From the IMG/VR virus record IMGVR_UViG_2537562194_000021: DNA of 5,056 nucleotides; one strand, 5' to 3'. A program made the position numbers and the translations under genes. Each line of letters begins with the position of its first letter. Within the stretch, counting starts at the first letter, position 1. The notes below the pieces were generated by a model. It was given only the letters and a program-made list of their open reading frames with translations, did not search any database and was not told the DNA's origin. This document shows positions 295 to 5,056 of this stretch, piece after piece. Origin of the DNA: a virus. Lineage: Duplodnaviria > Heunggongvirae > Uroviricota > Caudoviricetes.

Positions 295-883
295 CATTTT
301 CCTGAGTCTGCCTGGTTGTTTCTTCAGCCTGTATATCGCCTACAGGGTGATAACGATAAATTGTCGATATGCCGATGTCGTAAATGATCGCCAGTTGTTT
401 CCTGTCATGACCGTTTTTGATCAGCCTTGCTATTTGCTCATGCTGTTCTTTTGTCCGCTTCGGGCGACGTCCGCCTGTGCGCCCCCGTGCGCGCGCTGCC
501 GCCAGTCCGGCCAGTGTACGTTCAACAATTAATTCACGTTCCATTTCAGCTAGGGCACCCATCACGTGGAAGAAAAAACGCCCCATTGGAGAAGATGTAT
601 CTATGCTGTCGGTCAGACTGCGAAAATTAATCCCTCGCTCCCGTAGTTCTCCGACGAGAGAAATCAGATGTTTCATGCTTCGCCCAAGGCGATCCAGTTT
701 CCAGACAACCAGCGTGTCACCTTTTTGAAGCCGCTTTAAAGCGCGTTTTAATCCCGGTCGGTCTGTCTTTGTCCCGCTTAATTTATCTTCAAATATTTGT
801 TCACATCCTGCACAAACAAGAGCGTTTCGTTGCAGGTCTGTATTCTGGTCATTTGTTGATACCCTTACATAACCAATCAGCAC
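284..883 (-). CDS. Site-specific DNA invertase, serine recombinase of the Gin/Pin/Cin/Hin family (about 199 aa)
   Basis: The translation carries the family's N-terminal catalytic motif LIGYVRVSTNDQNTDLQ (catalytic Ser at residue 9, codon 857-859), the central conserved block WKLDRLGRSMKHLISLVGELRERGINFRSLTDSIDTSSPMGRFFFHVMGALAEMERELI, and a C-terminal helix-turn-helix region (RKQLAIIYDIGISTIYRY). The track begins the ORF at a TTG (899-901), but GTG at 881-883 gives the canonical M-L-I-G-Y-V-R-V-S N-terminus and is preceded by GGGAG (891-895) with a 7-nt spacer. Confidence 0.93.
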   Translation of the reverse strand: MLIGYVRVSTNDQNTDLQRNALVCAGCEQIFEDKLSGTKTDRPGLKRALKRLQKGDTLVVWKLDRLGRSMKHLISLVGELRERGINFRSLTDSIDTSSPMGRFFFHVMGALAEMERELIVERTLAGLAAARARGRTGGRRPKRTKEQHEQIARLIKNGHDRKQLAIIYDIGISTIYRYHPVGDIQAEETTRQTQENENR

Positions 884-937
884 ACTGAATCTCCCGTCCA
901 AAAGCGCAAATCATGCCATGCAGGCCGGAAACGGCCA

Positions 938-963
938 TTATCTAAAACCTCGGTTTACAGGAA
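938..963. other. Left 26-bp recombination (crossover) site for the invertase, gix/pix/cix/hix-like; predicted core dinucleotide TC at 950-951
   Basis: ttatctaaaacc-tc-ggtttacaggaa is two imperfectly palindromic 12-bp half-sites around a 2-bp core, and closely matches the gix-type sequence as I recall it. An inverted copy is at 4241-4266. It lies 55 bp from the invertase start. Confidence 0.85.
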
Positions 964-1019
964 ACGGTAAATCAGGCTTCTGGCGCATTACAGAAAAACC
1001 AGAACGGCGCAGATATTCC
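938..1019. repeat. Left arm of the 82-bp inverted repeat bounding the invertible segment
   Basis: The reverse complement of 4185-4266 matches 938-1019 with only 2 mismatches (positions 943 and 946, both in the outer half-site). Identity is perfect from 947 to 1019 and decays inward after 1019. Confidence 0.9.
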
Positions 1020-1908
1020 GGGAAAAGATACCTTCACCAAAAATATTGGGGCCTGCCGCGCATATAGCGCATGGCTGGATATTGGTGGCGATAGTCAGGT
1101 CTGGACAACCGCGCAATTTATTTCGTGGCTGGAGAGTCAGGGAGCATTTAACCATCCTTACTGGATGTGCAAAGGCTCATGGGCTTATGCAAATAATAAG
1201 GTCATTACAGATACAGGTTGCGGAAATATTTGTCTTGCAGGTGCTGTGGTGGAAGTTATTGGCACTCGCGGCGCAATGACCATACGCGTTACCACGCCGA
1301 GCACGTCCAGCGGTGGAGGAATTACTAACGCTCAATTCACTTATATTAATCATGGTGATGCTTACGCTCCTGGCTGGCGACGAGACTACAACACGAAAAA
1401 TCAACAACCTGCATTTGCTTTAGGGCAAACAGGAAGCACTGTCGGAAATGATAAAGCTGTTGGCTGGAACTGGAATAGCGGGGTCTATAACGCAAATATT
1501 GGTGGCGCATCGACATTAATCCTCCACTTCAATATGAATACGGGGAGCTGCCCTGCTGCACAGTTCCGCGTGAATTACAGAAATGGCGGAATCTTTTATC
1601 GTTCAGCGCGTGATGGTTATGGCTTTGAAGCTGACTGGTCAGAGTTTTACACCACAACCCGCAAACCCTCTGCGGGAGATGTTGGTGCATATACGCAGGC
1701 AGAATGTAACTCAAGGTTTATTACAGGTATTCGCCTTGGCGGTCTGTCATCTGTTCAGACATGGAATGGTCCCGGCTGGTCTGACAGGTCAGGTTATGTC
1801 GTTACGGGTTCAGTTAACGGAAACCGTGATGAATTAATTGATACAACTCAGGCAAGGCCAATTCAGTATTGCATTAATGGGACGTGGTATAACGCGGGGA
1901 GTATTTAA
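949..1908 (+). CDS. Silent alternative tail-fiber C-terminal (receptor-binding) cassette, Sv'-like; has no start codon and is expressed only after inversion fuses it to the constant part
   Basis: Frame 1 is open from the TAA at 943-945 to the TAA at 1906-1908. I translated 949-1164 by hand and found no stop and no ATG/GTG/TTG. The first 24 codons (949-1020, [24 protein letters not shown]) are identical to the linker of the expressed fiber. The C-terminus (..PIQYCINGTWYNAGSI) parallels the expressed fiber end (..[16 protein letters not shown]). The track's ATG at 1165 is an internal Met. Confidence 0.8.
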   Translation, partial: LGLQETVNQASGALQKNQNGADIPGKDTFTKNIGACRAYSAWLDIGGDSQVWTTAQFISWLESQGAFNHPYWMCKGSWAYANNKVITDTGCGNICLAGAVVEVIGTRGAMTIRVTTPSTSSGGGITNAQFTYINHGDAYAPGWRRDYNTKNQQPAFALGQTGSTVGNDKAVGWNWNSGVYNANIGGASTLILHFNMNTGSCPAAQFRVNYRNGGIFYRSARDGYGFEADWSEFYTTTRKPSAGDVGAYTQAECNSRFITGIRLGGLSSVQTWNGPGWSDRSGYVVTGSVNGNRDELIDTTQARPIQYCINGTWYNAGSI

Positions 1909-1910
1909 CG

Positions 1911-2444
1911 ATGATGCACTTAAAAAACATTACTGCTGGCAACCCTAAAACAAAAGAGCAATACCAGCTAACGAAACAATTTAACATCAAATGGCTTTAT
2001 TCAGAGGATGGAAAAAACTGGTATGAGGAACAAAAGAATTTCCAGCCAGACACTTTGAAAATGGTCTATGACCATAACGGCGTTATTATTTGTATTGAAA
2101 AGGATGTTTCAGCAATTAATCCGGAAGGCGCAAGCGTCGTTGAATTACCTGATATTACAGCAAATCGCCGTGCTGACATTTCGGGTAAATGGATGTTCAA
2201 AGATGGCGTAGTGGTAAAACGAACTTATACCGAGGAAGAGCAGAGGCAGCAGGCGGAAAATGAAAAGCAAAGCCTGCTACAGCTCGTCAGGGATAAAACC
2301 CAGCTATGGGACTCACAGCTACGGCTGGGCATCATTTCCGACGAGAATAAACAAAAATTAACAGAGTGGATGCTCTTTGCGCAGAAAGTCGAATCTACAG
2401 ACACTTCCAGCCTGCCAGTAACGTTTCCCGAACAACCTGAATGA
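1911..2444 (+). CDS. Tail-fiber assembly protein (Tfa/U-like chaperone) cognate to the silent cassette, currently in the silent orientation
   Basis: A 177-aa ORF starting 2 nt after the Sv' stop, with GGGGAG at 1896-1901 as a ribosome-binding site. Its first ~120 aa are roughly two-thirds identical by eye to the convergent ORF at 2473-3000 (shared MMHLKNI.., [30 protein letters not shown]), while the C-termini diverge. Confidence 0.85.
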   Translation: MMHLKNITAGNPKTKEQYQLTKQFNIKWLYSEDGKNWYEEQKNFQPDTLKMVYDHNGVIICIEKDVSAINPEGASVVELPDITANRRADISGKWMFKDGVVVKRTYTEEEQRQQAENEKQSLLQLVRDKTQLWDSQLRLGIISDENKQKLTEWMLFAQKVESTDTSSLPVTFPEQPE

Positions 2445-2447
2445 GAC

Positions 2448-2474
2448 AAGGCCCGATAGCGGGCCTTAATTTTT
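2448..2474 (+). terminator. Intrinsic terminator between the convergent assembly genes; strong in the + direction, weak in the - direction
   Basis: Hairpin aaggcccg-atag-cgggcctt (2448-2467) is followed on the + strand by aatttttatt. On the - strand the hairpin is followed by gtctcattcagg, with no U-run. Confidence 0.55.
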
Positions 2475-3000
2475 ATTCAGGCTTTTGTGGCCATTCAGGA
2501 TTTGCCGTATCCACACGGCTGACCAGAACACTGTAGCGTTCCCATGACTCCAGTCGTGCGCGTTCCTCATCCGTCGCCATATTCAGCCTGACAGCGCGCT
2601 CCAGTGGCTGAATAACGCTTTCCGCTTCGGAAAGTAACGCGGCCTTTTGTGATTCGGCCTGTTGTTGCTGCTCGTCTGCCGTATAAATCCGTTTAACTAC
2701 AGCTCCGTCCTTAAACATCCACTTACCGGAATCATCGGCCCGACGATTGGCTGTTATATCGGGGACCTCAACGACGTTAAAACCTTCAGGGTTAAGCGTG
2801 GAGGCATCTTTAGTTATGGCAACAATAATATTATGTTCATCGTAAACAATCTTTATTGTGTCTTCCTGAAAATTCTTTACCTCTTCATACCAGTTTTTTC
2901 CGTCTTCGGACCACAACCAGATAACGTCAAAATTCTTTGTTAATTCGTACTGTTTCAGTGTTTTAGCGTTACCCGCTTTAATGTTCTTTAAGTGCATCAT
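2473..3000 (-). CDS. Tail-fiber assembly protein (Tfa/U-like chaperone), expressed orientation, translationally coupled to the tail-fiber gene
   Basis: A 175-aa ORF whose ATG (2998-3000) lies 1 nt after the tail-fiber stop (3002-3004). It is a paralogue of the 1911-2444 product, with a conserved N-terminal two-thirds and a divergent C-terminus. Confidence 0.88.
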
Positions 3001-3001
3001 A

Positions 3002-5056
3002 TTAAACGCTCGCTACATTATACCAGGTGCCATTTATATACTTTTGAACTGGTCTGTAATAAACGCCAGCTATATTATCGGCAGAATTTGACCCTGTATC
3101 CTGAACATTTATACCAGACAATACATGACCTGAAGGGCACTGGAAGTTCCATGTTTGCCAGTTGTTCACACCATAATATTGCTGTGAACCAAGCCGAACA
3201 TCTTTCACATATCGGGAATCAATGTTACCCCAGTTGCTTGGTTGTATCTGACCGTTTACAGCAAATGTCACCGAGTTATCTGTATTTCGCTGACTATAGA
3301 AATGCCAGCCTGAATCATCACCAAGCTCTGCAACAGTTGGTCTTGACGAATTTCCCCACAAGTTAAATGATGCATTACGGGCAGCGGTATTTGCACTTGA
3401 AAGTGTGAATAACTTACTTTCCCCAGCCTGAATACCCTTTAATGATATTGCTGAACCATTTCTAAAGCGGAATACATGCACACCATTAGCATAAGCATCC
3501 AGCACCCCATCACCATTTTGTTTAAACCCGGTATCGTTATCTCCTAAAACTATTGAATTGCTACCCAGGGCATTAGCCGTTCCAATCCCCAGATTTCCGC
3601 TAAAAATGGCATTAATACCGAATATTGAGTGAGAACAATAAAACCCTCGCCCATTGTTAAAATCAAGAATAGCTTGTGCGTTCGTGCTTTCTGTCGCGGG
3701 ATTAGTTGCTCCCCACTTATATGTTGTTTGACCGACGGTATAATCCTGAGTTGGAACAATAACCGTTAGCCCTTCTTCAGCAGAAACCCGCACAGGAAAA
3801 GCCCTGCCTTCAACGTAAAAAACGCTGCATACATCATCTTCTTTAAGGCTTGTTACAATGGAATGGATTGCGCGCTCATTAGTCTGATACGTCGAAAAAT
3901 AACCTGCCGCATATGAACCACGATCAGTCCAGCCACCAGGCATTACCATTCCATTGAATTCGCAGTTATTCATTTCGTAATTACCACCGGCAGATGTGGT
4001 CGTTATAATCACTCTGGAAGCCAGCTCGCCAGTGCTGCCTGTGGAACGCCGGAAAATAACTGGATACCACTTTCCACCAACTGCATTAGACGGCGCATTA
4101 AATGCGTACTGCTGCATTCCTTTTTTCTTATCCACCTCGCCTTTGCTGTAAACATTAATGTTACTCAGGAAGCGATCCTTATCAGGAATATCTGCGCCGT
4201 TCTGGTTTTTCTGTAATGCGCCAGAAGCCTGATTTACCGTTTCCTGTAAACCGAGGTATTCGATAACGGCGGCAACGGTCGATTTCGCAAGAATATCCCG
4301 CCCTACTTTTGTCAGAGTTGCCAGGCTGGCGACATCATTCCCCGTAAAATACGGAAACCTGTCTGCCGCAGTAGCAAGCCCGGCCAGCGCCGTCAGGGTG
4401 GCATCTTTCGGTTGCTTACCCGCAAGCGCGTTAGTCATGGTGGTCGCAAAATTCGGGTCGTTGCCCAGCGCCGCCGCCAGCTCGTTCAGCGTGTTCAGTG
4501 CGTCAGGTGAAGAGTCTACAAGTGCGGCAATCGCGGCCATAACGAAAGCCGTGCTTGCGATTTGGGTATTATTCGTTCCCTGTTGTGCAGTTGGTGTTGT
4601 TGGCGTTCCGGTCAGTGCCGGGCTGTTTAATGGGGCTTTCTTGTTCGTTTCATCCATTACCGCCTTAACCGCTTTTGGTGTCGCTGCCAGCGTTTCAGAC
4701 GTGCTGTTGGTTGCACTGCTGAGCTGGACTATCCCTTTTCGTGCCGTCGTGGCGTCCTGAGCGGTATATTTTCCGTTAGCCAGGTCATACGCGGCCTTAA
4801 CCGCTTTCGGCGTTGCGGCCAGCGTTTCAGAATCGCTGTTAGTGGCGCTACTGAGTTGAACAAAGCCTTTTGCGGTCAGCGAGGCATCCGGGTGACGTCG
4901 TGACTGTTCATGCTCTTTCAGTTTGTCATCCACGTAATCCACTGTGGCCATCACCATGGTGTTATCCACGGTAAGCGCCACGCTGGCAGTGCTGGATACG
5001 GTTAGAATGGTGCGAAATGTTTGTGCACGTCCGGACCCCTCGGCAACGGTTGGCTT
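3002..5056 (-). CDS. Tail fiber protein (P2 H / Mu S / P1 S-like): constant N-terminal part plus the currently expressed variable C-terminal part; 5-prime end lies beyond the window
   Basis: The - strand frame is open from the window edge (5056) to TAA at 3002-3004; the track's start at 4981 is an internal GTG. The N-terminal region has the tandem [24 protein letters not shown] motifs and the [37 protein letters not shown] block that I recall from P2 H-type fibers. The crossover site lies inside the gene at 4241-4266, at ..[11 protein letters not shown]... Confidence 0.92.
4185..4266. repeat. Right arm of the 82-bp inverted repeat, lying inside the tail-fiber coding sequence
   Basis: It is the reverse complement of 938-1019 with 2 mismatches in the outer half-site. 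It encodes the 24-aa linker [24 protein letters not shown] of the expressed fiber. Confidence 0.9.
4241..4266. other. Right 26-bp recombination (crossover) site, inverted relative to the left site; predicted core at 4253-4254
   Basis: The reverse complement of 4241-4266 is ttatcgaatacc-tc-ggtttacaggaa. The inner half-site is identical to the left site and the outer half-site differs at 2 positions. Confidence 0.85.
4664..4867 (-). repeat. Intragenic tandem repeat encoding two copies of a 24-aa motif in the tail-fiber constant region
   Basis: Unit 1 (4796-4867) encodes [24 protein letters not shown] and unit 2 (4664-4735) encodes [24 protein letters not shown]. The period is 132 bp and nucleotide identity is roughly three-quarters by eye. 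Confidence 0.7.

Follow-up and report, generated by a model that had tools for sequence, protein, structure and literature searches.

Gene content of the window and its invertible segment

The analysed stretch of DNA (5,056 nucleotides, hereafter the window) matched the chromosomes of E. coli 95NR1 and of an O111:H8 strain with 100% nucleotide identity over all 5056 bases, and the invertible segment found in it is carried by a P2-like E. coli prophage, whose nearest sequenced phage kin is of the P88/Xuanwuvirus type. Genes were assigned from open reading frames, Pfam and RefSeq annotation. The left end of the window encodes the C-terminus of a gpU tail protein (12–257, + strand; Pfam Phage_P2_GpU), which converges with a serine DNA invertase gene of the Gin family (284–883, − strand; RefSeq CDS). 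The invertase contains the Resolvase (E=1.2e-50) and HTH_7 (E=3.9e-12) domains, is 84.5% identical to Mu Gin at the protein level, and its gene reads away from the segment. A 12-bp hairpin between the gpU and invertase genes (265–294) was found by the terminator scan and would stop any − strand transcript traversing the invertase gene. The next open reading frame, Sv′ (952–1908, + strand), is ~93% identical to Mu S′ and represents an alternative fibre C-terminal cassette, which has neither promoter nor start in the present orientation. It is followed by tfa′ (1911–2444, + strand; Pfam Caudo_TAP, E=2.7e-36), the assembly gene of the silent cassette, which corresponds to U′ of Mu and P1 according to the Mu annotation. 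The assembly gene of the expressed cassette, tfa (2473–3000, − strand; Caudo_TAP, E=9.8e-37), corresponds to U and lies next to the tail-fibre gene (3002–5056, − strand; RefSeq CDS with Phage_fiber_2 repeats), in which Sc is fused to Sv. This gene extends past the window edge, and its constant part, Sc, lies to the right of position 4254. The 504–3064 region proved to be ~93% identical to gin-S′-U′-U of phage Mu, and the C segments of P1 and P7 showed 88–93% identity to the same region. No Rfam match was obtained in the whole window at E≤1.

Two gix-type crossover sites were identified by sequence and by in silico inversion. The left site, TTATCTAAAACC-TC-GGTTTACAGGAA, occupies positions 938–963 with its centre at 950–951, while the right one, TTCCTGTAAACC-GA-GGTATTCGATAA, occupies 4241–4266 with its centre at 4253–4254, and both 26-bp sites are situated inside a 102-nt inverted repeat of 91% identity (934–1035/4169–4270). 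The region thus has the make-up of a Gin/Cin/Pin-type segment: a serine invertase gene is adjacent, two inverted sites share a matching central dinucleotide, the constant N-terminus of the fibre is encoded outside, and two opposed cassettes, each consisting of a fibre C-terminus and an assembly gene, lie inside. When the window was inverted in silico at the central dinucleotides, the resulting sequence was identical to that of E. coli 95JB1 (100% over 5056 bases). The flip is the sole difference between 95NR1 (native) and 95JB1 (inverted), both of which came from faecal samples and appear from their strain names to be sister isolates, and the same flip difference was found between the O145 strains RM9872 and RM9467-C1. 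The switch is therefore active and both orientations occur in nature.

The hairpin between the convergent assembly genes

A GC-rich hairpin common to both convergent cassettes lies at 2448–2467, in the 28-nt gap between the stop codons of tfa′ (TGA, 2442–2444, + strand) and tfa (TAA, 2475–2473, − strand). Its sequence, AAGGCCCG-ATAG-CGGGCCTT, forms eight base pairs, six of them G-C, closed by a 4-nt loop; it starts 3 nt and 5 nt past the two stops, and its folding energies are −13.9 and −13.1 kcal/mol. The terminator scan, folding and conservation all suggest that it is the core of an intrinsic terminator. As in intrinsic terminators, the stable GC-rich hairpin directly follows a stop codon, and a U-rich tract is found on the + face and, in part, on the − face. 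The 45-nt inverted repeat that encloses the hairpin (2436–2480) has an energy of −27.2 kcal/mol as + strand RNA (z = −5.3; 0/200 shuffles as stable) and −20.1 kcal/mol as − strand RNA (z = −3.1). This repeat is longer than the hairpin because tfa and tfa′ both end with CCT GAA and a stop codon.

The original prediction held that the hairpin is followed by a U-run on the + strand only, and the scan, the tail sequences and the hybrid energies agreed with this. The consensus terminator scan reported a match only on the + strand with the tail AATTTTTATT (2468–2477), the predicted U-tract of the + face, which would end tfa′/U′ transcripts after inversion and whose final bases are complementary to the tfa stop and the last Glu codon. 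The − strand sequence beyond the hairpin is GTCTCATTC, and the full tail read by − strand transcripts after the hairpin, GTCTCATTCAGG (2436–2447, − strand; hereafter the weak face), is the complement of the Pro and Glu codons of tfa′, its TGA stop and the 3-nt spacer. What makes the two sides unequal is that one combines AATTT, a 5-nt spacer, with a TAA stop, while the other has a 3-nt spacer with a TGA stop. The RNA:DNA hybrid of the first eight tail nucleotides had an energy of −3.3 kcal/mol on the + face versus −7.0 kcal/mol on the − face. A d'Aubenton-Carafa-type score, computed with modern (ViennaRNA) energies so that its zero threshold is uncalibrated and only the comparison of the two faces is meaningful, was +5.7 for the + face and −6.8 for the − face in the window, and only +0.9 versus −1.2 in Mu. 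The weak face is not free of U: if the two A-U pairs at the base of the stem are counted as tail, it reads UUGUCUCAUUC. The asymmetry of the faces is genuine, though less stark than strong versus none. A second terminator-like site on the − strand (2321–2301) was considered as a back-up terminator and dropped, since its d value was about −55.

Canonical bidirectional terminators have A- and U-tracts on either side (PMC10204088), and they likewise serve two convergent genes with one hairpin. In those, an upstream A-tract mirrors the U-tract, whereas no such mirroring was found here: the upstream flank of the hairpin is TGAGAC, with GAGAC in the place of the A-tract, the U-run is present on one face only and the scan reports the + strand only. 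The hairpin at 265–294 stands nearer to the canonical bidirectional type than that at 2448–2467. In a terminator-trap study, the antisense activity of most phage and reference terminators was only weak to mediocre (PMC10204088), and on this basis the − face is called partial rather than null.

The same element was recognized in the best-known relatives of the segment. The junction of the P1 C segment is identical to that of the window, base for base, while the Mu U/U′ junction has the same stem, matching flanks, the same one-sided T-run and the same pivot position between the convergent U′ and U, and differs in the inverted 4-nt loop (ATAG here versus CTAT in Mu) and a few flank bases. The layout of Mu, in which gin is downstream in sense, is also that of the window. 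Unlike Mu and P1, the carrier here is a P2-like prophage of the P88/Xuanwuvirus type with different Sc and Sv. At the junction, the GenBank and RefSeq entries for Mu, P1 and P7 carry no terminator annotation; in Mu, the late P transcript has reportedly been shown by 3′-end mapping to stop between U and U′ through Rho-independent termination. The junction hairpin is thus an already known element, the operon-end terminator of Mu and P1.

To the sample of related junctions, 80 viral contigs and eight genome loci encoding tfa relatives contributed, together with Mu and P1; the scan of species-representative genomes provided these eight loci only, and most of them were non-invertible tfa genes. All convergent U′/U junctions (75/75) shared one architecture, that is, TGA, a 3-nt spacer, the hairpin and AATTTTTAYTC. 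In each of the 75, the U′ stop was TGA and the T-run was confined to the U′ side, and a comparable T-run on the weak face occurred in none (0/75), though all of them come from a single, horizontally shared cassette (88–97% identical) and do not amount to 75 independent tests. The exact fit of the hairpin at the convergent stops and its retention in all 75 related junctions show that it is more than a chance structure. Nucleotide diversity was computed on 45 unique gapless junctions and compared with the neighbouring third codon positions, where it was 0.14. The stem had a diversity of 0.013 (P<1e-5 versus third codon positions) and the non-coding AATTT spacer of the T-run was invariant in the 45 junctions (diversity 0.0, P=0.002), while the loop reached 0.27. 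The 3-nt spacer of the weak face, represented in nature by GTC, CTC, GTT, CCC and TTC, had a diversity of 0.30 and was as variable as neutral sites. These values indicate that the stem and the T-run are under purifying selection, as expected of a terminator working in the U′ direction, and that the weak-face spacer is selected neither for nor against U-richness and appears to drift freely.

The path to the invertase gene and the occupancy of the two orientations

As the original prediction had stated, the open reading frames and the crossover sites place the expressed Sc-Sv-tfa operon on the − strand, where it meets the weak face, with the invertase gene lying further downstream in the sense direction; once the segment is inverted, the strong face follows tfa′, as is seen in the in silico inverted window that equals 95JB1. 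The start of the invertase gene lies 1565 nt past the weak face on the − strand. The − strand path between 2447 and 884 contains several C-rich, G-poor windows, the best of which has 26 C and 10 G per 80 nt (~2267 down to 2188). Rho terminates untranslated RNA with C-rich, G-poor stretches, and judging from its base composition the read-through RNA, an untranslated antisense transcript, is likely a Rho substrate. Candidate invertase promoters were located by sequence matches at 910–964 on the − strand: TTTCCT-16-GATAAT (964–937) straddles the crossover site inside the inverted repeat, while TGnCATGAT (918–910), which is conserved in Mu and e14, lies outside the segment. Owing to these positions, the candidate promoters are identical in both orientations. 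Promoter-like matches inside the segment numbered four versus 7.5 in shuffled sequence, which gave no sign of an orientation-specific internal promoter. P2-type late promoters require Ogr and Mu late promoters require C; consequently, lysogens, in which inversions build up, do not express the fibre operon. In the literature, no usable description of the gin promoter, Mu RNA-seq or account of the orientational control of fimE was found.

The two states proved to be about equally frequent. Of the complete E. coli genomes in which coverage reached 80% or more, 35 carried the native and 33 the inverted orientation, and in viral contigs of Mu layout, U was expressed in 15 and U′ in 13. The pooled count (50/96) gives a 95% interval of the proportion of roughly 0.42–0.62, and speaks against flip rates that differ by much more than 1.6-fold, on the assumption of roughly independent genomes that is made plausible, though not proven, by the flips between sister outbreak isolates. 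In contigs of P1 layout, the corresponding numbers were six with U and eight with U′ expressed. According to a paper on phage SfMu, G(+) and G(−) particles are equally frequent in Mu lysates obtained by induction, and lysates grown from infection keep mostly one orientation. Unequal occupancy of the two states, as would be expected of fimE-type control, was thus seen neither in the E. coli genomes and Mu-layout contigs nor in the reported Mu ratios. The census describes lysogens with the late operon off, and is therefore compatible with an orientation-dependent burst of invertase in the lytic cycle.

The orientation of the invertase gene relative to the segment is not constant. In P1, cin is directed at the C segment, with cixL overlapped by the 3′-end of the gene, and this P1-type layout with the same junction was found in 14/42 loci; read-through from S-U would there be antisense to the invertase gene, since cin faces the segment. 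The arrangement expected of fimE-type control is accordingly not conserved wherever the element occurs. The P1 cin record also annotates a Fis-dependent recombinational enhancer in the 5′ part of the gene.

More distant, non-homologous relatives were sampled via the invertase protein in the phage collection. The e14 P segment, Cartapus, SEN8, Chris1, SJ46, SKA5 and KP12 have the same order as the window, that is, fibre, tfa, reversed tfa′, reversed fibre′ and the invertase gene in sense, but their convergent tfa genes overlap or abut, unlike the 28-nt gap seen here. A junction terminator was absent on both faces in e14, Chris1, KP12, SJ46 and SKA5, while Cartapus and SEN8 have unrelated junction hairpins, only one face of which is followed by a T-rich tail. 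The central terminator is not a conserved component of this switch family, and in several relatives no intrinsic terminator is predicted before the invertase gene in either orientation. K-12 e14 was also considered as a proxy with public 3′-end data, and was rejected since its tfaP and tfaE overlap and have no junction hairpin.

Significance of the one-sided U-tract

The original prediction inferred a regulatory consequence from this anatomy: the weak face would let late transcripts run 1.5 kb through the silent cassette and the left crossover site into the invertase gene and the strong face would block them after inversion, thereby making invertase dosage and the switching rate dependent on orientation, which could bias the switch. 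Gin and Cin switches are regarded as unbiased coin-flips, and read-through feeding the invertase would add a layer of feedback to these textbook systems and offer a counterpart of the fimE case among serine recombinases. The geometry is correct, the T-run is one-sided in every related junction and selection acts on one face only, and the one-sided junction terminators of Cartapus and SEN8, with the invertase gene downstream in sense, fit as well. A conceptual precedent is the fim switch, where expression of the FimE recombinase depends on orientation (Joyce & Dorman, 2002). The concept is the same there, as a terminator in an invertible element acts in one orientation only and ties recombinase expression to the state of the switch. 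In fim, the mRNA of the recombinase itself enters the switch, the terminator is Rho-dependent, the enzyme belongs to the tyrosine recombinases and the switch has a strong directional preference. Here, in contrast, the invertase gene reads outward from the segment and has been assigned a candidate promoter of its own, the terminator is of the intrinsic type, and the orientations are balanced (35:33).

Several further observations speak against a bias of the switch. In Mu, lysogens settle at equal ratios and lytic growth yields mainly a single orientation, the 15:13 count in Mu-layout contigs is likewise balanced, the identical junction occurs in P1-type loci with cin facing the segment, and some relatives have no junction terminator. 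The spacer of the weak face varies between CCC and TTC as an unconstrained sequence would, the late operons are silent in lysogens, and 1.5 kb of untranslated RNA with candidate Rho-loading stretches separates the hairpin from the invertase gene, whose candidate promoters are independent of orientation. The anatomical part of the original prediction therefore stood, while orientation-dependent dosage and the resulting bias were not supported by these comparisons, and we consider this reading improbable. The familiar operon-end terminator of Mu and P1, the equal occupancy of the two states and the relatives without terminator or with reversed invertase gene point away from feedback.

A variant limited to the lytic cycle would be that the one-sided T-run has been selected so that only the U′-expressing orientation is insulated, while the U orientation produces a late burst of invertase that flips some genomes before packaging. 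If this were true, late transcription in the U orientation would extend into the invertase gene and, in the case of Mu, perhaps further on into com-mom, the host-range heterogeneity of the progeny would depend on the parental orientation, and the one-sided junction terminators of Cartapus and SEN8 would be parallel cases. We regard this as very doubtful.

A functionally bidirectional hairpin, both faces of which terminate efficiently in vivo so that the asymmetry has no meaning, would be in line with the weak-face tail, which starts with UU and is pyrimidine-rich once the A-U pairs at the base of the stem are melted, and with the near-equal scores of the two faces in Mu. In addition, the Mu P transcript is said to have a discrete end at the junction in induced lysogens that hold both orientations. 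This explanation is rather unlikely, though not to the same degree as those above, as the hybrid on the weak face exceeds that on the other in stability by 4 kcal/mol, the symmetry of A- and U-tracts of canonical bidirectional terminators is missing and the weak-face spacer is unconstrained, unlike the T-run. The strongly conserved stem with its free loop, present as the same stable structure in both RNAs, would also suit an element that chiefly stabilizes the 3′-ends of both tail-fibre mRNAs against exonucleases, while transcription would stop at another position. The invariant non-coding AATTT, however, would have no obvious role in such an element and is needed by a terminator, which makes this the least probable of the explanations considered.

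Considering these results, we concluded that the late tail-fibre operon of this Mu G/P1 C-type segment probably ends at the hairpin by Rho-independent termination, and that the asymmetry of the hairpin would be a by-product rather than a dosage device. Since the hairpin lies at the pivot of the segment, either Sv-tfa or Sv′-tfa′, once joined to Sc, would read into it. The face that follows tfa′/U′ would be canonical, consisting of the hairpin and AAUUUUUAUU, and apparently maintained by selection, while the face that follows tfa/U would offer the same hairpin with only a UU-G-U-C-U-C-A-UU tail and is probably a partial terminator. Transcripts that escape it would run as untranslated antisense RNA over tfa′ and Sv′ and may mostly be ended by Rho before the invertase gene, and the invertase gene itself would be transcribed from a promoter of its own, irrespective of orientation. 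The asymmetry may have arisen from the history of cassette assembly combined with weak selection on the second face, where selection would be weak since nothing but a silent cassette is crossed by transcripts that escape. The outcome is modest, in that selection appears to keep only one face of a common terminator.

Loop polarity at the U'/U junction and orientation among isolates

The loop of the junction hairpin comprises 4 nt, at 2456–2459 of the window and at 3199–3202 of the Mu locus. It reads ATAG in the window and in P1 and CTAT in Mu, the junctions being otherwise collinear. Both loops were common among the 75 related convergent U'/U junctions collected for comparison, and the flanks of the hairpin had the same polarity throughout, with zero flips. 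Since the loop occurs in both polarities between unflipped flanks, the sequences suggest short inversions whose limits are set by the stem.

The orientation of the whole segment was compared in complete E. coli genomes matching the window in native or inverted form. In isolates 95NR1 and 95JB1, the prophage of the window occupies one shared locus but is oriented oppositely, and the same holds for O145 strains RM9872 and RM9467-C1 (genomes H26/H51 and H28/H56); thus, the segment flips on the timescale of sister isolates. Strain KSC9 has two prophage copies, one in each orientation.

Signals around the invertase gene and repeats in the fibre genes

A 12-bp hairpin (AAAACCGCTAAT...ATTAGCGGTTTT, 265–294), flanked on both sides by A- and T-tracts, separates the gpU gene from the invertase gene convergent with it. 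It looks like a bidirectional terminator, which would end all transcripts leaving the invertase gene. Inside the antisense tfa', on the read-through path, a weak terminator-like hairpin with the tail GGTTTTATCC was detected on the − strand (2301–2321); its score was poor. Upstream of the invertase start, beyond the invertible segment, the − strand carries the motif TGGCATGAT (910–918), a candidate extended −10 promoter that is also kept in Mu (L001, about 1650–1660) and in e14 (L094, about 4650–4660).

The crossover sites are enclosed by a 102-nt inverted repeat (934–1035 and 4169–4270, 91% identity), which far exceeds the 26-bp sites in length because the first codons are common to Sv and Sv'. 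The constant fibre part contains a 96-nt direct repeat (4662–4757 and 4794–4889, 75%), corresponding to the two Phage_fiber_2 repeats.

Junctions in other phages and contigs

Unrelated junction hairpins, each followed by a T-rich tail in just one direction, were found in two other P2-like invertible fibre segments, those of Cartapus (L095, 4695–4722), where the hairpin lies within the opposing tfa' coding sequence, and SEN8 (L096, 3855–3881). A junction terminator was absent in five other relatives among the invertible fibre segments examined at this position. An enterobacterial-type U'/U junction with the same hairpin is present at 6531–6570 of L084, a locus with a tfa relative on a contig labelled Vagococcus sp.; Vagococcus is a Gram-positive genus, and contamination or unusual transfer could account for this junction. 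In P7 (L093, 1227–1760), the annotation divides the gene at the U position into the ORFs Ua and Ub, and this split suggests that the assembly gene of that cassette is frameshifted.
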